Source: a virus
Lineage: Monodnaviria; Loebvirae; Hofneiviricota; Faserviricetes; Tubulavirales; Inoviridae
IMG/VR virus record: IMGVR_UViG_2695420792_000001
Location: 1-6,287 of that record
Direction: 5' to 3' (one strand)
Length of the DNA: 6,287 bases
The notes under the pieces: model-generated
What the model was told of the DNA's origin: nothing
What the model saw: the letters and a program-made list of their open reading frames with translations, nothing else
Databases searched by the model: none
Shown here: in pieces, positions 1 to 6,287 of the stretch
Numbering within the stretch: the stretch's first letter is position 1
How the letters are laid out: the number at the start of each line of letters is the position of its first letter
Translations under genes and position numbers: made by a program

Positions 1-84
1 TTCGGGGGAAAAACGAGTATTTTTAGTCATCCTGTTTACCTCTTTCTCAGGAAGTTTAGTCTCCAGGATTCCCGGGGCGGTTCA
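1..84 (-). mobile_element. Partial IS3-family insertion sequence (IS629/IS1203-like), orfA-proximal terminal inverted repeat end; element body extends leftwards out of the window
   Basis: Bases 1-84 are the exact reverse complement of 5960-6043, which contains the terminal repeat TGAACCGCCCCGGGAATCCTGGAGA and the start of the transposase OrfA ([11 protein letters not shown]...). The element terminus is at position 84 (…TCA on the + strand). Confidence 0.85.
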
Positions 85-118
85 GGTTTCGATATCGATT
101 AAAGGTTCGATTCTGAAA

Positions 119-1048
119 ATGTCGGGAAATCCATCCCGATGGAACAGACTGGACAATTTGTTTGGTCACACTTCTGTTGATGCCTGTGTGCAGGTATACA
201 ACCGGATCCTGAATGACCTTGGTCTGCCGGAATTCACAAAATGTACGAAATTGTGGCAGAGACAGGCAAGTGAAACTGAAAAGGCCGGAACGGTTACTGA
301 TGGCGCATGTATTCGTGAAATTCACATTACATCCAACCGAACAGTCGGAGCAGATAATGTAGATGACTATATATCGGGCCTTTCAACATTACGGTATCGC
401 AATAGTGAGCCGCGATTACACAGCAACGGTAAATCAGTTGACTGGCTATCCAAAAAAGGAAACGCCTTGCTCATTTATCCGACTGTATATAATAAAGCAC
501 ATGAAATTAAGCTTCACTCCCTTAATAAAATAAAGAATAAATTCGGGGATTCATCAGCTGAAGTTTCATACATCAAAAAGATTATTGATTTCTGTCAGGA
601 ACAGGGCGTAGTCAGATTTGAGCAAAAACTTAAATCCCGGTATCTGCAACGTAACCATCTTATTTACTGGGGGCTTTCCGACTATTCAATACTCAATAAT
701 TTACATGATGATTTTTTAGCTCTTGATAAAAAGCTTATGGTGACGTCGATGGATTTTGAAACGATTAGTGAACATTTAATCAGTGAAGGCATTGTTGACT
801 CAACTCGATCAGCGAATACCACTGCGATGTATGCTATCCAGTGGATGCACGGTCACTCATTTGATTTTTCTAAAACACAGGTGCAAACCCATCGTGCCAG
901 GCTTAGAAAAATAGGTATTGACATTGCTCAGCGATGTAATATTTCCAAATTTAGCCCCGTTATTGTTAAGAAAGTGAGAGAAGTATCAGTAAGTGAATGC
1001 TTTATTCCATCATGGTATGTGAAACCACGTTATTTGCATGTTGCATAA
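119..1048 (+). CDS. Replication initiation protein (gene II-like), 5'-truncated by the IS insertion; reading frame is open upstream to the IS junction at 85 and into the IS, so Met119 is not the native start
   Basis: Large ORF immediately upstream of the gene V homologue, as in the Ff gene order. The frame has no stop between position 29 and 1048, so it runs across the IS junction. It contains a Y-x3-Y-x-K motif (IYPTVYNK, nt 476-496) reminiscent of catalytic tyrosine motifs in rolling-circle initiators. No direct sequence alignment is possible from memory. Confidence 0.55.
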   Translation: MSGNPSRWNRLDNLFGHTSVDACVQVYNRILNDLGLPEFTKCTKLWQRQASETEKAGTVTDGACIREIHITSNRTVGADNVDDYISGLSTLRYRNSEPRLHSNGKSVDWLSKKGNALLIYPTVYNKAHEIKLHSLNKIKNKFGDSSAEVSYIKKIIDFCQEQGVVRFEQKLKSRYLQRNHLIYWGLSDYSILNNLHDDFLALDKKLMVTSMDFETISEHLISEGIVDSTRSANTTAMYAIQWMHGHSFDFSKTQVQTHRARLRKIGIDIAQRCNISKFSPVIVKKVREVSVSECFIPSWYVKPRYLHVA

Positions 1049-1060
1049 GAGGATATTTAA

Positions 1061-1348
1061 ATGATTAAGATTGAAATTAAACAGTCTCAGGCCATTGCCG
1101 ATACGCGTTCTGGCGTGTCGAAGTCGACCGGGCAGGCGTATACAATTAATGAGCAGTCTGCATATATTTTTCTTGGCCAGGATTATCCACAACTCTTCAA
1201 GTTGAATCTTGACGCGGGTCAGGCACCATACCCGGCGGGATTATATACATTACATCCATCCAGTATTTACGTCGGTGATTTCCAGAAATTACGGGTAGGA
1301 AGAATCGTTCTGATTCCATATCAGGAAAATAAAGAACAGACTAAATAA
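1061..1348 (+). CDS. ssDNA-binding protein, Ff gene V protein homologue
   Basis: The 95-aa product MIKIEIKQSQA..TRSGVS...YTINEQ..Y..LG..YP.L.K..LD.GQ.PY..GLYT.H.SS..VG.F aligns along most of its length with recalled M13 gVp (MIKVEIKPSQAQFTTRSGVSRQGKPYSLNEQ...GLYTVHLSSFKVGQF). RBS AAGAGGA sits about 8 nt upstream. Confidence 0.9.
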   Translation: MIKIEIKQSQAIADTRSGVSKSTGQAYTINEQSAYIFLGQDYPQLFKLNLDAGQAPYPAGLYTLHPSSIYVGDFQKLRVGRIVLIPYQENKEQTK

Positions 1349-1357
1349 GGTATCGCT

Positions 1358-1576
1358 ATGGCTTCTCAGAATATAATGACTGGTAAGATTTGTGATGGCA
1401 ATACTGAGCAGAACTGCCAGATAATAACATTAAATTCCTCTGAGTTGCCATATCAGCAGCTCCCTCCGGCAGAAGATATTGCACTGGTATGGGGAACTGC
1501 TTTTACCTCTGTAATCGTCCTTTATTTAGTATCACACTGTATTGGACTCGTTTTAAATATGATAAAGAGAGCCTAA
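1358..1576 (+). CDS. Small protein with C-terminal hydrophobic segment, in the position of Ff genes VII/IX (putative minor virion cap protein)
   Basis: 72-aa ORF between the gene V and gene VIII homologues. It has a hydrophilic N-terminal half and one C-terminal hydrophobic helix (ALVWGTAFTSVIVLYLVSHCIGLVL). An AGG motif lies upstream. The call rests on synteny only. Confidence 0.4.
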   Translation: MASQNIMTGKICDGNTEQNCQIITLNSSELPYQQLPPAEDIALVWGTAFTSVIVLYLVSHCIGLVLNMIKRA

Positions 1577-1578
1577 TT

Positions 1579-1800
1579 ATGAAAAAGACCATTTTGAAAT
1601 CAGCTGTTGTTATTGCTTCCGTAGTACCTTTTCTGGCTAATGCAGCAGAGTCTGCCGGAGTGGATTTTACTGCATTGACTAATGCAGTGTCATTCGACAG
1701 TGTAATTGTGGCAATTATGTCCGTAGCCGGCATTTTGGTTGGTCTTTATGCCTCCATTGCCGGGGCAAAAACAGTTCTGCGTATGATCCGTGGGGCCTGA
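1579..1800 (+). CDS. Major coat protein precursor (gene VIII-like), 73 aa
   Basis: MKKTILKSAVVIASVVPFLANA is a signal peptide with an A-x-A cleavage site. The mature part has an acidic N-terminus (AESAGVDF), a hydrophobic core and a basic C-terminus (KTVLRMIRGA). Length equals the 73-aa M13 pVIII precursor. I prefer the ATG at 1579 to the ORF-track start at 1489, which would overlap the preceding gene. Confidence 0.8.
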   Translation: MKKTILKSAVVIASVVPFLANAAESAGVDFTALTNAVSFDSVIVAIMSVAGILVGLYASIAGAKTVLRMIRGA

Positions 1801-1807
1801 TAATACG

Positions 1808-1825
1808 GGCAGGGGAAACCCTGCC
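1808..1825 (+). terminator. Stem-loop downstream of the major coat protein gene (GGCAGGG-GAAA-CCCTGCC), candidate intrinsic terminator
   Basis: A perfect 7-bp GC-rich stem with a GAAA tetraloop begins 8 nt after the gene VIII stop. The downstream T tract is weak (TTCAGGAGTTTCTG). Ff phages carry a terminator at this position between genes VIII and III. Confidence 0.45.
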
Positions 1826-1922
1826 TTCAGGAGTTTCTGTGATATTACATTTCTGGCTAATTACCTGTTTTCTCTGGGGTCTTCTTTGTGCCTGGGCAGT
1901 TATAAAAGGATTAGGAGGGTAA

Positions 1923-3188
1923 ATGAAAACTCTTTTAATTGCATTGTTGTTATCTATCATTAGCTTTTATTCATACAGTGCAGAGAACGCAGCTGTTATT
2001 AATCAGACCATTTCAGGAACCATTAAAAACAAAATTACACAGCGTGGTTTCTCAGCGAATGATCCTCGATACTACGGAACATTAAAAGGTATTTCAGGTT
2101 ATCTAAATTCTACCGCTTCAGGTTCGAAAGCTTATACCGTTGCAGGTGTCTCTGGTCGTTCGTGGTTATCAGTTGGACTCAGAGGGGCTTTGTTAAGCCG
2201 CGGTACGCTTATAGCTCTTGCCGCTTCCGGTGCGGTGGCATGGCTAATTGAGACTGAGGACTCCGTACAAATCAAAGTAAAAGAAATAACGGGAGAGCAG
2301 GGTGTTAAAGGGTTTTACTGGAATATTGGCGCAGAAAGCTATGTTACAGCAACTGAGGGAGCTCAGTCGATATGCCAGCATAATCCGGCGTTCTGTCAGA
2401 CATACATAGTTGAGCAATATAATGCAGACCCGACAAGGTCTGATTTAAGAACCATCAAATTTTATATTGATTCATCTAAAACACAGCTTTGGGCATCACG
2501 AACTGCAAACCTTGTTTCCTGCGGTACAAATAAGGTTATGCCTACATGTCAGCCTGATTATGTGCCGGGTAGTAATGAAGTAATTAAAACCGTTAGCGTA
2601 CAGGATGCTATTAATAGCATTTCAGATACGGAAATGCAGACAGATCTTTCGCCAGAAGTTATTTCTGATGTTGTAAATAATGCATGGCAAAAAGCAGCCT
2701 CCGAAGCAGGGTATTCTGGTTTTGCATACGACCACACCAGACCAGTGACAGCGCGTGATGTAACTGCTTCAACTGGTGCTGCAAAGCCCGCTGTATCTGA
2801 CTTTCTCAAACCGTCAGACAAACCCGATTTTACACTACCTGCTGACACAACAGGGACAACACCAACCAATCCATCGACAGGAGAACAGGTTAATCTTGGT
2901 GATGATCCTGGTATTGGGCCGCCTGAACTGGAAAATATACCTGCAGGTACTGAAATTTTATCTCCATTATTATCATTCAACCCCTTTGAAGATTCAGCCG
3001 ATGCACTTAATGCAGAAAGCGAAAGAATTAAATATGCGGAGTGTCCAAAACCTGTACTGGATGTTTTTAACGGACAATATAAGTTAGAAACACATTGTAC
3101 ATTATTAAATAATAACGCTGCGATGATTGGTGTTATTTTTCTGTTCATTTACTCAATAGCAGCGTTCAGAATTATCCTTTCTGCATAA
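1923..3188 (+). CDS. Adsorption/minor coat protein (gene III-like), 421 aa
   Basis: Strong RBS AGGAGG about 5 nt upstream. The signal peptide MKTLLIALLLSIISFYSYSAE resembles the recalled M13 pIII leader (MKKLLFAIPLVVPFYSHSAE). The C-terminus has two Cys (ECPKP...THCTLL) followed by a membrane anchor (AAMIGVIFLFIYSIAAFRIIL), as in M13 pIII. A Pro/Thr/Gly-rich linker lies in the middle. Size matches pIII (424 aa). Confidence 0.85.
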   Translation: MKTLLIALLLSIISFYSYSAENAAVINQTISGTIKNKITQRGFSANDPRYYGTLKGISGYLNSTASGSKAYTVAGVSGRSWLSVGLRGALLSRGTLIALAASGAVAWLIETEDSVQIKVKEITGEQGVKGFYWNIGAESYVTATEGAQSICQHNPAFCQTYIVEQYNADPTRSDLRTIKFYIDSSKTQLWASRTANLVSCGTNKVMPTCQPDYVPGSNEVIKTVSVQDAINSISDTEMQTDLSPEVISDVVNNAWQKAASEAGYSGFAYDHTRPVTARDVTASTGAAKPAVSDFLKPSDKPDFTLPADTTGTTPTNPSTGEQVNLGDDPGIGPPELENIPAGTEILSPLLSFNPFEDSADALNAESERIKYAECPKPVLDVFNGQYKLETHCTLLNNNAAMIGVIFLFIYSIAAFRIILSA

Positions 3189-3197
3189 AGGTGATTT

Positions 3198-3485
3198 ATG
3201 TTTGGCATCATGACCTCTGTTTTATATGGCGTTCTTGGGTTTTTATTGCGCTCAGTTATTGTGAAGTTTACGGTGTTTTTTGCATTGTATTTTATTGTGC
3301 AGGAATTCGTGCCGCTTATTCTCGATATGGTTAATCGCCAACTCCCACTTCTTGCGTTAATTTCAAGTATTCCAGATAGCCTGAAATATTTCTTCTCTGT
3401 TTTTAAAGTTATAGATGGGATTAACATAATACTTTCAGCTTTTGTGACTCGCTTTATTATTCGTCGAATTCCGGTAATAGGATAA
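3198..3485 (+). CDS. Minor coat protein (gene VI-like), hydrophobic 95 aa
   Basis: Highly hydrophobic small protein immediately after gene III and before gene I, matching Ff synteny. RBS AAGGTGA upstream. Confidence 0.7.
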   Translation: MFGIMTSVLYGVLGFLLRSVIVKFTVFFALYFIVQEFVPLILDMVNRQLPLLALISSIPDSLKYFFSVFKVIDGINIILSAFVTRFIIRRIPVIG

Positions 3486-3489
3486 TTTT

Positions 3490-4515
3490 ATGGCTGTATC
3501 ATTGTATATGGGTGTGATGGGGAGCGGTAAAACATACGAGGTTGTTTACAGTGTTATTATCCCTGCGGTTTCAGCAGGCCGCCGTGTAATCACCAATATC
3601 AAAGGGATAAATGAAGAGAAAATACATGAGTATTGTCGTTCTAAATTCAAGACTAAGCAGCCTGGTCGTGTTGTTTTCGCATCGACGGATGAAATATTAA
3701 AGGATGATTTCTTCCCTTTTTACTCTGATGATGAATCTTCAGAACAAAAAGCAGCATTTTGTGAATATGGTGATCTGATTTGTCTTGATGAATTATGGTC
3801 AATATGGCCATCGGACTCAAAACTATCTGAGGCACATAAAAGATTTATTTCAATGCACCGTCATATGACACATGCTGTTAGTGGGGTATCATGTGATTTG
3901 GTCATCATCAATCAGGGTGTAGATGGTGTACCCCGGTATCTTAAAGAGCGTATTGAATCGACATACCGGATGACCAAACTAAAATCTTTGGGGCTATCAA
4001 AGTCATATCGTGTCGATGTTTTTTCTGGTGCCAAAGTATTCAAAAATAATAAAGTCAGTACTCGTAACTATCAGTACAAAAAAGCCGTTTTTGAATTATA
4101 CAAATCTTATGAAACCACTAACGGAATGGAAGCGACAACAGACTCTAGACAAAACGTTTTTTCATCCGCCTTTCTTTGGGTGAAAATTGCATTTTTATTA
4201 TTTATTGTACTGGCTTCTATATATTCAATAAGAACGGTCTGGGTGGATATTAGAGGAGAGTCAGTACCAGAGCCGAAACATACCGAACCGGAGGTTGTAC
4301 TGCCTTCATCAGAAAAGATTGCGAAACCTGATGCCCCGTACTCAAAGCGCTGGCGTATTGCCGGGGAGTTAAAATCAGATTATGTCAGCAAGGTTGTTCT
4401 TACAGACAGCAATGGTCGGTTTAGAACGCTACCGGCAAATCAGTTCGACGGAGAAGGTTTTACTTTAAGTGGAATCATTGATGGTGAAATTGTCACCTAT
4501 TTTACTGGGGGTTAA
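3490..4515 (+). CDS. Phage assembly protein pI (Zot-family P-loop NTPase), 341 aa
   Basis: The N-terminus MAVSLYMGVMGSGKTYEVV carries a Walker A motif (GxxGSGKT) and resembles recalled M13 pI (MAVYFVTGKLGSGKT). A single transmembrane helix (FLWVKIAFLLFIVLASIYSI) lies about two thirds along the protein. It sits directly upstream of the secretin gene. Confidence 0.9.
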   Translation: MAVSLYMGVMGSGKTYEVVYSVIIPAVSAGRRVITNIKGINEEKIHEYCRSKFKTKQPGRVVFASTDEILKDDFFPFYSDDESSEQKAAFCEYGDLICLDELWSIWPSDSKLSEAHKRFISMHRHMTHAVSGVSCDLVIINQGVDGVPRYLKERIESTYRMTKLKSLGLSKSYRVDVFSGAKVFKNNKVSTRNYQYKKAVFELYKSYETTNGMEATTDSRQNVFSSAFLWVKIAFLLFIVLASIYSIRTVWVDIRGESVPEPKHTEPEVVLPSSEKIAKPDAPYSKRWRIAGELKSDYVSKVVLTDSNGRFRTLPANQFDGEGFTLSGIIDGEIVTYFTGG

Positions 4516-4516
4516 T

Positions 4517-5728
4517 ATGAAATTATTTTATATCATAATAATGGTATTTATGATTCCACCTGCATTATCAAAAGGCGTTATACTGAATCTCTCAGGATTA
4601 ACGCTTAATGATGCCATTACTTTGTTTTATACTGAAGTTATGAGAAAACCGTTCATGGTTTCTCCTGAACTTATCACGGACAAACGACAAGTTAATTTCA
4701 ATATTACGCCAGATATGGATGAGTATACGTTTATTATGCGTTATCTCCAGAATGCCGGAGTCTCTGTAGCCAGAAAAAATGGTGTGGATTACTTTTATCT
4801 CCAGGAGAAAAAAGTATACGAAGCCCCGAAATATTCTTTTGTTTACACACCACAGTACCGTTCTGTTGCTTATCTGGCTGATATTCTTCAGTCACAAGTG
4901 AGCGGGTCATTTTCAAATGGTGGGCAAATAGGGCATGGCGATGTTTCTCCTGCGATGATTAAAGACAATACCGCATCCGATTTTTTGAGCAGAAATGGGG
5001 ATGTACTTGTTTTTTACGGTACGAAAAAAGACATTCAGCGGGTCGAAGATTTGCTTCCTCTTATCGACCGGGCCGCCGAAGAAGTTATTGTCGCCGGGTA
5101 CGTGTTTGAGGTTCAGACGTCTGAGCGAAATGGTTCTGGCCTGGCACTGGCTGCCAAACTTATGTCGGGAAAATTCACAATAGAAACGGGTACTGCACAA
5201 GGACTCAGCAACTTTGTCCGTTTCAGTTCTGGATCGCTCGATGCACTTTATGAGTTGTTCAGAACAGACAGCCGTTTTCACGTCGTCAGTTCGCCACAAT
5301 TGCGGGTCAGAAATGGCTCTAAAGCATCATTTTCTGTGGGATCTGACGTGCCGGTACTCGGTCAGGTCAGCTATGTTGATGGTCGTCCGGTTCAGTCCAT
5401 TGATTATCGTTCAAGTGGCGTAATTTTTAACGTTCAGCCGCAAATCCGGGCTGCTACGATTGACCTTAATATTCATCAGCAACTGTCTAATTTTGCAAAA
5501 ACAGAGACTGGGGTGAATAACAGCCCGACGCTCATTAAACGGGAGGTGAACACCGATGTTTCGCTCAAGGATGGCGACATAATTTTACTTGGTGGTCTGG
5601 CTGAGAATAAAGACAGTAATGCAGATACGGGCCTGTCATTTTTGCCGTCATGGTTCGGAACAACGGCAACTGAAAAAGCAAAAACAGACATCATTATTGT
5701 ACTTCAGGCCAGAAAAATCAGGCGGTGA
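4517..5728 (+). CDS. Secretin, phage pIV-like outer-membrane export channel, about 403 aa
   Basis: Signal peptide MKLFYIIIMVFMIPPALS. The C-terminal secretin-type region (VSLKDGDIILLGGLAENKDSNADTGLSFLPSWFG) resembles the recalled pIV C-terminus (…MDGQPLLLGGL…GVPFLSKIP…). I chose the start at 4517 because it follows the gene I stop (4513-4515) and a GGGGG RBS; the ORF-track start at 4469 would lie inside gene I. Confidence 0.88.
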   Translation: MKLFYIIIMVFMIPPALSKGVILNLSGLTLNDAITLFYTEVMRKPFMVSPELITDKRQVNFNITPDMDEYTFIMRYLQNAGVSVARKNGVDYFYLQEKKVYEAPKYSFVYTPQYRSVAYLADILQSQVSGSFSNGGQIGHGDVSPAMIKDNTASDFLSRNGDVLVFYGTKKDIQRVEDLLPLIDRAAEEVIVAGYVFEVQTSERNGSGLALAAKLMSGKFTIETGTAQGLSNFVRFSSGSLDALYELFRTDSRFHVVSSPQLRVRNGSKASFSVGSDVPVLGQVSYVDGRPVQSIDYRSSGVIFNVQPQIRAATIDLNIHQQLSNFAKTETGVNNSPTLIKREVNTDVSLKDGDIILLGGLAENKDSNADTGLSFLPSWFGTTATEKAKTDIIIVLQARKIRR

Positions 5729-5959
5729 GAGCAGGGCGGCCAGCCCCGCAGCTCCGTGAGGAGCTGGCCGTACTGAGACACCGACTGTTGATTGATTGTG
5801 TAAATCATGAACGGCGTGATTTGCGCATGCGCAAATTTCTCGTCAATTCTTATGGGGAATCTATGGCTACAAAGTTGAAGTTTATCCGACTGAAAATTGA
5901 AGATGAGTTAATCCAGCCGGTTAATAATCTGGCAGGCATTCGCGATGAGTTAAAGGCCG
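5729..5959 (+). promoter_or_regulatory. Remnant of the phage intergenic region, truncated at 5959/5960 by the IS insertion; contains a GC-rich dyad and a perfect 18-bp palindrome
   Basis: Located after the gene IV stop, where Ff phages carry a terminator, the packaging signal and the origins. Hairpin CAGCTCC-GTGA-GGAGCTG at 5749-5766, or the alternative CGGCCAGC/GCTGGCCG pairing at 5737-5770. Perfect palindrome ATTTGCGCATGCGCAAAT at 5819-5836. Confidence 0.5.
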
Positions 5960-6287
5960 TGAACCGCCCCGGGAATCCTGGAGACTAAACTTCCTGAGAA
6001 AGAGGTAAACAGGATGACTAAAAATACTCGTTTTTCCCCCGAAGTCCGTCAACGGGCAGTCCGTATGGTTCTGGAAAGTCAGGATGAATATGACTCACAG
6101 TGGGCGGCAATTTGTTCCATTGCCCCAAAGATTGGCTGTACGCCGGAGACTCTGCGTGTCTGGGTTCGCCAGCATGAGCGGGATACCGGGGCGGTGATGG
6201 TGGGCTCACCAGCGCTGAACGTCAGCGTCTGAAAGAGCTGGAACGTGAAAATCGTGAACTGCGCCGCAGTAACGATATCCTTCGCCA
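5960..6287 (+). mobile_element. Partial IS3-family insertion sequence (IS629/IS1203-like), orfA-proximal end; element continues beyond the window
   Basis: Terminal repeat starts TGAACCGCCCCGGG at 5960. OrfA begins at 6014 with [23 protein letters not shown]…[18 protein letters not shown], which matches my recollection of IS629 OrfA. Identical over 84 bp to the inverted copy at 1-84. Confidence 0.9.
6014..6232 (+). CDS. IS3-family transposase OrfA (helix-turn-helix N-terminal part); frame is interrupted before the leucine-zipper segment, which continues in the -1 frame from 6178 to the window end
   Basis: The ORF encodes the HTH-like N-terminus and stops at 6230-6232. The leucine-zipper-like sequence [19 protein letters not shown] is read in the -1 frame from 6229 onward. 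The two frames overlap at 6178-6232, around a G4 run at 6188-6191. Confidence 0.7.

Follow-up and report, generated by a model that had tools for sequence, protein, structure and literature searches.

The element analysed here is a perfect 18-bp palindrome in a 6,287-nt stretch of inovirus DNA (IMG/VR record IMGVR_UViG_2695420792_000001, positions 1 to 6,287; the whole stretch is called the window below), and its closest described counterparts are the sites bound by KorB- and ParB-type proteins. The KorB/ParB operator-centromere is a known type of site. parS sites are 16-bp perfect or near-perfect palindromes bound by dimers of helix-turn-helix (HTH) ParB proteins, and several of them often lie near the par operon. 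The phage-plasmid N15 carries several dispersed palindromic sites of the ParB type (SopB) and encodes its own SopAB. An example of a parS sequence is given in PMC4820964. On plasmid RK2, the operator OB is a 16-bp silencer with the core TTTAGCGGCTAAA, bound by KorB at 12 sites that are either next to promoters or more than 1 kb away (PMC11790492). KorB of the IncU plasmid RA3 is a ParB-family protein that binds a centromere-like parS and three operators and globally controls the genes for stability and transfer (PMC7414963); its site is an inverted repeat, IR-SnaBI (PMC4175270). The RA3 site was considered as a possible match but was rejected on this evidence, since its name implies TACGTA and, judged from the name, its sequence differs from the palindrome.

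The palindrome recurs on conjugative plasmids, where it resembles the OB of RK2/RP4 (IncP-1). Both are 16 bp long and two-fold symmetric, with a T-run, a GC-rich core and an A-run; both occur in about a dozen copies over the plasmid, some near promoters and many far from them; and in both cases the gene of the known or candidate binding protein lies beside parA (parA/incC), the plasmid protein here being a detectable KorB homologue. Differences are seen in the sequence, in the plasmid backbone (MOBF, with an F-type type IV secretion system (T4SS) and no assigned incompatibility type), in the GATR motif that replaces GERR in the KorB proteins of the Escherichia coli group, and in the presence of copies on elements without KorB (filamentous phages, a P2-like prophage and small plasmids). 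No report of RK2 OB on KorB-less phages or other elements was found in the literature searched. Classical parS sites cluster near the par operon or origin, whereas most copies here are spread at gene boundaries, as for RK2 OB. N15 encodes SopAB, but the inoviruses described here have no ParB or KorB, so a binder would have to come from another replicon. The intergenic hairpins of Ff phages also lie just after gene IV and also form hairpins, but they are long and imperfect, while the site here is a short perfect palindrome followed by genes; moreover, the same sequence occurs together with unrelated Rep proteins and in double-stranded DNA (dsDNA) plasmids, and is absent from IKe and PEar1. This distribution speaks against the link to a phage initiator or origin hairpin that was drawn in the first-pass annotation, which was made from the window alone. 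A non-coding gene IV–gene II region with a nick site and initiator repeats, as in an Ff-type origin, was not found.

The palindrome and its plasmid copies

The palindrome is located as follows:
5819–5836, no strand assigned: site P1, the perfect 18-bp palindrome ATTTGCGCATGCGCAAAT, with the 16-bp core TTTGCGCATGCGCAAA at 5820–5835

It is the longest perfect palindrome in the window, and its position and symmetry are those given by the first-pass annotation. No further copy of ATTTGCGCATGCGCAAAT occurs in the window when three mismatches are allowed, and the half-site TTTGCGCA has no other occurrence there. A palindrome of at least 18 bp was present in 101 of 3000 windows simulated with a first-order Markov model (3.4%), in agreement with the earlier estimate of about 0.02 per window. 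Taken alone, the palindrome is only mildly unusual, and its significance comes from the copies outside the window (four per phage unit and 10–16 per plasmid). The 16-bp core is perfectly palindromic, and in some copies the symmetry extends to 26 bp. Plasmid and phage copies have the same flank preference, giving the extended consensus A-W-TTTGCGCATGCGCAAA-W-T. The site can fold into a 7-bp stem with a 4-nt loop, the loop being itself palindromic. Literature searches returned nothing for TTGCGCATGCGCAA, and GCGCATGCGC is described only as the eukaryotic NRF1 motif.

Plasmids of 70–86 kb with many matches were found by a 36-mer search of complete E. coli genomes, and their copies were counted with the 14-mer TTGCGCATGCGCAA:
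pLD91-1-76kb (E. coli), whole plasmid scanned: 16 copies, 14 of them with the full 16-mer
p51929 (Citrobacter freundii), 45 kb scanned: 10 copies
pSA20053897.2 (Salmonella), 50 kb scanned: 12 copies
pKAM330_2 (Aeromonas hydrophila), 80 kb scanned: 11 copies

Other palindromic words of equal length never occurred more than twice in each plasmid. Together with the Yersinia plasmid described below, five plasmids carry 10–16 copies, each with adjacent parA and korB-like genes. Their common backbone comprises a MOBF relaxase, an F-type T4SS, ParA, ParB, H-NS, Hha, DnaB and UmuDC. On pLD91-1-76kb, 13 of the 16 copies are intergenic, although the plasmid is 79.5% coding. The usual geometry on this plasmid is a stop codon, 0–7 nt, the site, 18–22 nt and a start codon, and the phage copies are placed equally tightly; this probably reflects where a 16-bp insertion is tolerated. 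In four of the five plasmids, sites lie 100–320 bp upstream of parA (the Yersinia plasmid has four in an array), and one site lies inside korB in several of them. In the plasmid database, 131 plasmids have a match of 19–20 nt or more; they belong to Escherichia, Enterobacter, Salmonella, Citrobacter and Aeromonas, and members of the family match in 10–27 places.

A KorB-type ParB as the candidate binding protein

The ParB of these plasmids (WP_146881366.1 on pLD91-1-76kb) has a Pfam KorB domain (29.4 bits; cutoff 22.3). A single-sequence search of the PDB with the KorB homologue gave nothing, and a profile was needed: built from four members, it matched two RK2 KorB structures, 8qa8 (E = 1e-9) and 1r71 (E = 2e-8), along both the HTH domain and the N-terminal region of ParB type. 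The Yersinia ruckeri plasmid p17Y0414.1, whose KorB (WP_234049733.1) is 31% identical, has no E. coli-type site; it carries 12 copies of TTGTGCATGCACAA at equivalent positions. This word, like the 16-mer TTTGTGCATGCACAAA, is the E. coli-type site altered symmetrically in its two halves. The predicted recognition helix reads VSKVQALA in Yersinia, and begins VSR in four lineages with the GCGC-type site TTGCGCATGCGCAA. The Aeromonas KorB-type protein is only 26% identical to that of E. coli, yet it has VSR and a GCGC-type site. This single co-variation event between site and recognition helix is, at the sequence level, consistent with KorB as the binder; the family of the 105-aa protein encoded downstream of P1 (see below) shows no such co-variation with the site. 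The symmetric change of both half-sites in one plasmid lineage, and the retention of the core in all relatives while the flanks diverge, also strengthen the original proposal that the palindrome is a candidate site for a dimeric DNA-binding protein.

On balance, it is probable that the plasmid site is a binding site of the KorB-type ParB (OB- or parS-like), and that it can be bound in trans on phage DNA. The palindrome would then belong to the regulatory and segregation network of plasmids with MOBF relaxases and F-type pili in Enterobacterales and Aeromonas. On the plasmids, a dimer of the KorB-type ParB would bind the site, the loading or operator sites being spread over the replicon. When phage and plasmid share a cell, the plasmid protein would bind the phage sites in trans, coupling accessory-gene expression and/or segregation of the replicative form to the plasmid. 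Accessory genes might be silenced or timed, plasmid ParA might partition the phage replicative form, or the multicopy replicative form might titrate KorB. We infer that the phages use the F-type pili of these plasmids as their receptor. No KorB or ParB homologue was found in the site-bearing phages, so the phage copies would be targets in trans rather than parts of a self-contained par system.

Several observations weigh against a KorB-type binder acting in this way. None of the nine complete E. coli genomes that carry the prophage has such a plasmid, so in those lysogens the phage site would have no occupant. The binder could also be some other conserved plasmid protein, and on pLD91-1-76kb no site lies upstream of parA. 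In the KorB homologues of the E. coli group, GATR stands in place of the GERR of ParB CTPases, which makes clamp behaviour like that of RK2 KorB uncertain. Co-variation alone does not exclude a hairpin function, because the symmetric change keeps the hairpin potential. No promoter-like sequence was found in searches around the site, and the gap between site and next start codon is only 18–27 nt. A gap of this size cannot hold a promoter, making a classical promoter-proximal operator unlikely; a loading, roadblock or centromere-like site is more likely.

Copies in prophages and other mobile elements

The E. coli phage is a dif-integrated inovirus, with a Zot protein no more than 41% identical to that of any deposited phage. 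The UPΦ phages (PMC7307601) were considered as its identity and rejected, as they belong to a different group. The region around the palindrome is present in nine of 5426 complete E. coli genomes, in tandem prophage arrays adjoining hipBA/ydeT. One intact array has 12 exact copies of the core in 24 kb, compared with 0.19 expected. An intact prophage unit carries the core TTTGCGCATGCGCAAA four times within about 960 bp (P1–P4), and no copies were found outside P1–P4 in 24 kb of intact prophage (0.2 matches expected). P1 precedes the 105-aa gene and P2 a HigA-family gene, P3 follows closely on orf59, and P4 is 98 bp beyond P3. In intact copies the secretin gene is followed by three genes, a dif-like site, three reverse-strand genes and then rep. 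The surroundings of P1 are not the Ff-like intergenic remnant that had been proposed, since genes come next (the 105-aa gene from 5863, the HigA-like gene and orf59). The core is perfect upstream of orthologues that are only 60–63% identical, where the flanks are unalignable; it is present in relatives and lies outside conserved coding sequence.

The HigA-family antitoxin of the intact phage (L002 12637–13066; L-numbers are our labels for sequence records) matches TIGR02607 at 53.9 bits (cutoff 47.7), and no HigB toxin was recognised beside it in the intact phage. The palindrome was considered as a HigA operator of a HigBA toxin-antitoxin system, which was rejected because the Salmonella relatives keep the palindrome (two copies) without a HigA gene. 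The main phage repressor, a 177-aa HTH protein, was rejected as the binder, as the repressor–rep intergenic region lacks the site. A host transcription-factor site was likewise set aside: there was no match among the known sites considered, and the genome scan gave scattered single matches at chance level. Similarity to a XerC arm (TGCGCAT) was dropped because the half-sites overlap and there is no central region.

The exact 16-mer is present in 20 IMG/VR contigs, six of which are inoviruses: two copies of the E. coli phage, L013, and the Aeromonas phages L015, L017 and L023. L013 is an IKe/PEar-like phage with the site between gene II and gene V, a junction that lacks it in IKe and PEar1. The Zot of the three Aeromonas phages is 97% identical to an A. 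hydrophila protein, and their site overlaps the beginning of a gene-III-like open reading frame (ORF); an alignment shows that L017 has two additional copies of the site, on a short indel, compared with its near-identical relatives. Aeromonas has both site-bearing phages and site-bearing plasmids. The small ribbon-helix-helix (RHH) repressors of L013 and L017 were rejected as binders because their homologues occur in saliva inoviruses without the site. In the P2-like prophage L020 a 24-bp version lies in the cargo region, and many plasmids of 4–9 kb have one copy, including a ColE1-type example with the 26-bp form GTGATTTTGCGCATGCGCAAAATCAC. As a control, the Yersinia-type 16-mer TTTGTGCATGCACAAA matched 16 virus contigs, all with single copies and none of them inoviruses.

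A scan of 185,579 species genomes gave scattered single matches, mostly inside long ORFs, as chance predicts. The 16-mer was also seen in six Janthinobacterium genomes (L049, L053, L066, L086, L101 and L121), inside long ORFs with similar flanks; these matches are apparently conserved coding sequence unrelated to the site.

The 105-aa gene downstream of P1

The features between the palindrome and the right-hand insertion sequence (IS) are:
5837–5862, + strand: 26-nt spacer between palindrome and start codon, including a GGGGA ribosome-binding site (from alignment)
5863–5959, + strand: first 32 codons of the 105-aa gene (RHH105), cut by the IS; WP_025693553 in intact copies

The distance from core to ATG is 26–27 nt in three diverged lineages, in which the spacer sequence itself has diverged. 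According to the annotation of intact copies, the gene begins at the ATG equivalent to window position 5863. Some gene callers start it at GTG 5725, which would place the palindrome inside the gene. This extension is unsupported, because distant homologues (60–63% identity) are 99–104 aa long, Salmonella has an in-frame TGA between palindrome and ATG, and in the relative L008 the palindrome is out of frame with the gene. Of the overlapping ORF at 5725–5959, which the first-pass annotation had left as a possible gene, the part from ATG 5863 onward is a real gene.

Homologues of the 105-aa protein (40–47% identity) are encoded on each of the four enterobacterial plasmids, where their gene has a fixed place heading the transfer operon, ahead of DsbC, TraL, TraE and TraK; a trace is present in Aeromonas. 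Both halves of the protein give sub-threshold matches to RHH_1, and a CopG-family structure was matched at E = 0.03. A low-confidence model (predicted local distance difference test, pLDDT, 60) shows strand-helix-helix twice, and its top fold matches, which are non-significant, are single-chain Arc and chains of 102–120 residues in F-plasmid relaxosome structures. The RHH accessory protein of the F relaxosome is TraY; the structure-search output leaves the matched chains unnamed. This evidence is weak but concordant, and the 105-aa protein is a probable tandem RHH protein of the TraY type.

The central ATG of the palindrome opens a mini-ORF (MRK...) of 7–15 codons, the stop codon of which overlaps or abuts the next start codon (TGATG, TAATG, ATGCTGA). 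Examples are:
L006 2544–2581
L043 about 7800–7830, minus strand
L013 288–325
L008 566–604
At E. coli P1 the central ATG is in frame with the 105-aa gene, and the gene-III-like protein of the Aeromonas phages (MRKFFIYLLCLNLSLLPAFQAHA) seems genuinely to begin at it. The arrangement may be a coincidence or translational coupling. A leaderless mRNA starting at the central ATG was considered and dropped, a good −10 hexamer being present only at P2.

Alternative explanations

The palindrome could instead be an autoregulatory operator, at which the 105-aa RHH protein represses its own gene while a homologue binds all plasmid copies. The fixed spacing to the 105-aa start codon, the probable DNA-binding RHH nature of the protein and the presence of homologues on every site-bearing plasmid (as a trace in Aeromonas) are all in keeping with this. 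However, it is unlikely, as none of the 10–16 sites per plasmid is upstream of that plasmid's own 105-aa homologue and the clusters lie upstream of parA-korB. The site also occurs without the 105-aa gene, in the inoviruses of the IKe-like and Aeromonas groups, in the P2-like prophage and in the small plasmids, and in the Yersinia plasmid, where the site has changed, the predicted DNA-contacting strand (LKF.RLRI.D) has not. Slightly less probable again is a structural hairpin, acting either in single-stranded DNA (ssDNA) as a complementary-strand or packaging signal, or in mRNA as a stem-loop for processing or translational coupling. Such a role would account for the stem-loop fold, for the tight intercistronic gaps (stop, 0–7 nt, site, 18–27 nt, start), for a Yersinia change that keeps the pairing, and, in several copies, for mini-ORFs from the central ATG that run up to or into the following start codon; inoviruses and conjugative plasmids also have an ssDNA entry stage in common. 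Structural hairpins usually drift with compensation, whereas stem and loop are here invariant in dozens of copies from Aeromonas to E. coli. The loop is itself palindromic, the site is also found in a dsDNA P2-like prophage and in ColE1-type plasmids, and the arrays upstream of parA and the copy inside korB fit a ParB site. There is also no T-run for termination and no consistent ribosome-binding site before the central ATG.

That the site is a passive passenger, having arrived with a plasmid-derived 105-aa cassette and having no role in the phage, is improbable, a little more so than the hairpin. A passenger would fit the mosaic make-up of the accessory region, with its plasmid-related modules, the lack of the plasmid in the lysogens examined, and the place of the window copy in a decayed, IS-bracketed remnant. 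Yet the core has stayed perfect between non-coding flanks that can no longer be aligned, each phage unit retains four copies, and unrelated inoviruses have the site independently, without other plasmid DNA (for example at the gII–gV junction of L013). Sites have also been gained or lost through short indels between near-identical Aeromonas phages. Chance alone is a negligible explanation: a perfect palindrome of at least this length is present in 3.4% of simulated windows, but the comparative data, including the 12 copies in the 24-kb array, exclude it.

The window as an IS-bracketed inovirus remnant

Positions 85–5959 of the window are a segment of a filamentous phage (inovirus) with IS ends on both sides:
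1–84, − strand: second IS end, inverted; exact reverse complement of 5960–6043; truncates rep
85–4515, + strand: inovirus remnant, with 5′-truncated rep to 1048, ssb 1061–1348, small genes 1358–1800, gene-III-like gene 1923–3188, DUF2523 gene 3198–3485 and zot 3490–4515
4517–5728, + strand: secretin gene (gene IV-like), from annotation; Pfam Secretin in relatives
5736–5771, + strand: conserved GC-rich hairpin right behind the secretin stop codon (alignment, fold)
5960–6287, + strand: left end of an IS629-like element of the IS3 family, 97–98% identical to IS629, with orfA from 6014

The secretin gene is the final morphogenesis gene ahead of the accessory module. The same IS end at 1–84 and 5960–6287 identifies the phage DNA as an IS-bracketed remnant; the two inverted IS629-like ends suggest either an arrangement resembling a composite transposon or a rearrangement mediated by the IS. 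Compared with an intact copy, the IS at 5960 truncates the 105-aa gene and has removed sites P2–P4, the HigA-like gene and the dif-like site. The junction between phage and IS (5959/5960) was not found in the complete E. coli genomes searched, including the nine prophage carriers, and the closeness of the palindrome to it, which had been thought meaningful, is incidental. Since the prophage is truncated, decayed and bracketed by IS ends, the palindrome in this window is probably no longer in use. There is no intrinsic terminator at P1, where a T-run precedes the stem and an A-run follows it.

The hairpin at 5736–5771 (GGCCAGC..CAGCTCC-GTGA-GGAGCTGGCC) belongs to a conserved block preceding the palindrome. 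It is kept in the aligned Salmonella relatives and in L008, where the upstream gene differs, and could be a terminator-like element, a packaging signal or an oriT-like signal.

A mosaic accessory region and other features of the prophages and plasmids

A non-coding element of about 50 nt (ccggaaattctttccggtgttttgg-cgggttggacaagccgtaggcgcgtcag) that follows P4 recurs on the plasmids, among other places directly behind the 105-aa homologue, and includes a terminator-like hairpin:
L002 13223–13273
L152 18264–18315 and 8597–8646
L156 19416–19466, 9252–9324 and 44896–45001
Because this element lies inside it, the annotated 'orf82' of the Salmonella phages is perhaps not a real gene over its whole length. 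When accessory regions are compared between different phages, the palindromes tend to mark the ends of the homology blocks. From these block ends, the shared element and the 105-aa homologues, it follows that the phage accessory region is a mosaic related to this plasmid family.

Five plasmid copies near anti-restriction and other early-type genes share a longer repeat (gtccgaaggatgatTTTGCGCATGCGCAAAatcacgcgtagcgc), and the same flank is found in the virus contig L009:
L152 2676
L153 27386, 29330, 34358 and 36065 (record positions 67386, 69330, 74358 and 76065)
L009 4084
This repeat may be a repeated promoter/operator unit of the plasmid leading region. The sequence GTTTAGCTAAAC, which is the core of the RK2 KorA operator as given in PMC11790492, occurs once on pLD91-1-76kb (L152 15780–15791), adjoining a gene at 15811–16854. 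Plasmid pKAM330_2 is annotated with four tandem blaGES-24 carbapenemase genes in a class 1 integron (L177 16551–21166).

P2 of E. coli strain EC4 (L002 12596–12611) reads TTTGTGCATGCGCAAA, one half-site having the Yersinia-type base; it is perfect in strain LD39-1. Many phage genes of LD39-1 (L001), among them zot, secretin and rep, are split or frameshifted, unlike those of EC4, which could be due to sequencing errors or to real decay of tandem copies. A 59-aa ORF overlaps the end of the HigA-like gene; it has homologues near a dif-like site in L007, and in Buttiauxella (L043) its homologue is fused to an orf82-like N-terminus. The dif-like site of the intact prophage (L002 13376–13408) reads GGTGCGCATAA-TGTCATACGCG-TTATGTTGAAA, with an 11-nt spacer between the XerC-like and XerD-like arms, and is followed by a strong terminator-like hairpin. 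The spacer of E. coli dif is 6 nt.

Significance

The presence of the site in a filamentous prophage and in other phages suggests that these phages plug into a plasmid control or segregation system. The literature searched contained neither this sequence, nor the network of this plasmid family, nor the site on KorB-less phages or elements. A wider proposal, possible but rather doubtful, is that at least three unrelated phage lineages (the dif-integrating E. coli/Salmonella group, the IKe-like phage and the Aeromonas phages), the small plasmids and the P2-like prophage each acquired the plasmid site and exploit KorB-ParA in trans. The payoff could be segregation of the replicative form, expression timed to the pilus-supplying plasmid, or KorB titration that de-represses the pilus genes, and in the E. 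coli/Salmonella group a stolen TraY-like regulator would come on top of this. Such regulatory parasitism between phage and plasmid would be of a kind not described so far.

If a KorB-type ParB is indeed the binder, the site would serve as global operator/centromere for a family of conjugative plasmids that is widespread but uncharacterised and includes members with carbapenemase genes (blaGES-24 on pKAM330_2). The carriers of the site that lack KorB would then range from filamentous phages of two bacterial orders to a P2-like prophage and many small plasmids. For annotation, the region after gene IV in these inoviruses should be read as an accessory module of plasmid origin and not as an Ff-like origin region. 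The palindrome would also serve as a sequence tag showing which phages and small plasmids depend on which conjugative plasmid, and would be a concrete, testable instance of a phage in cross-talk with the plasmid from which its receptor probably comes.

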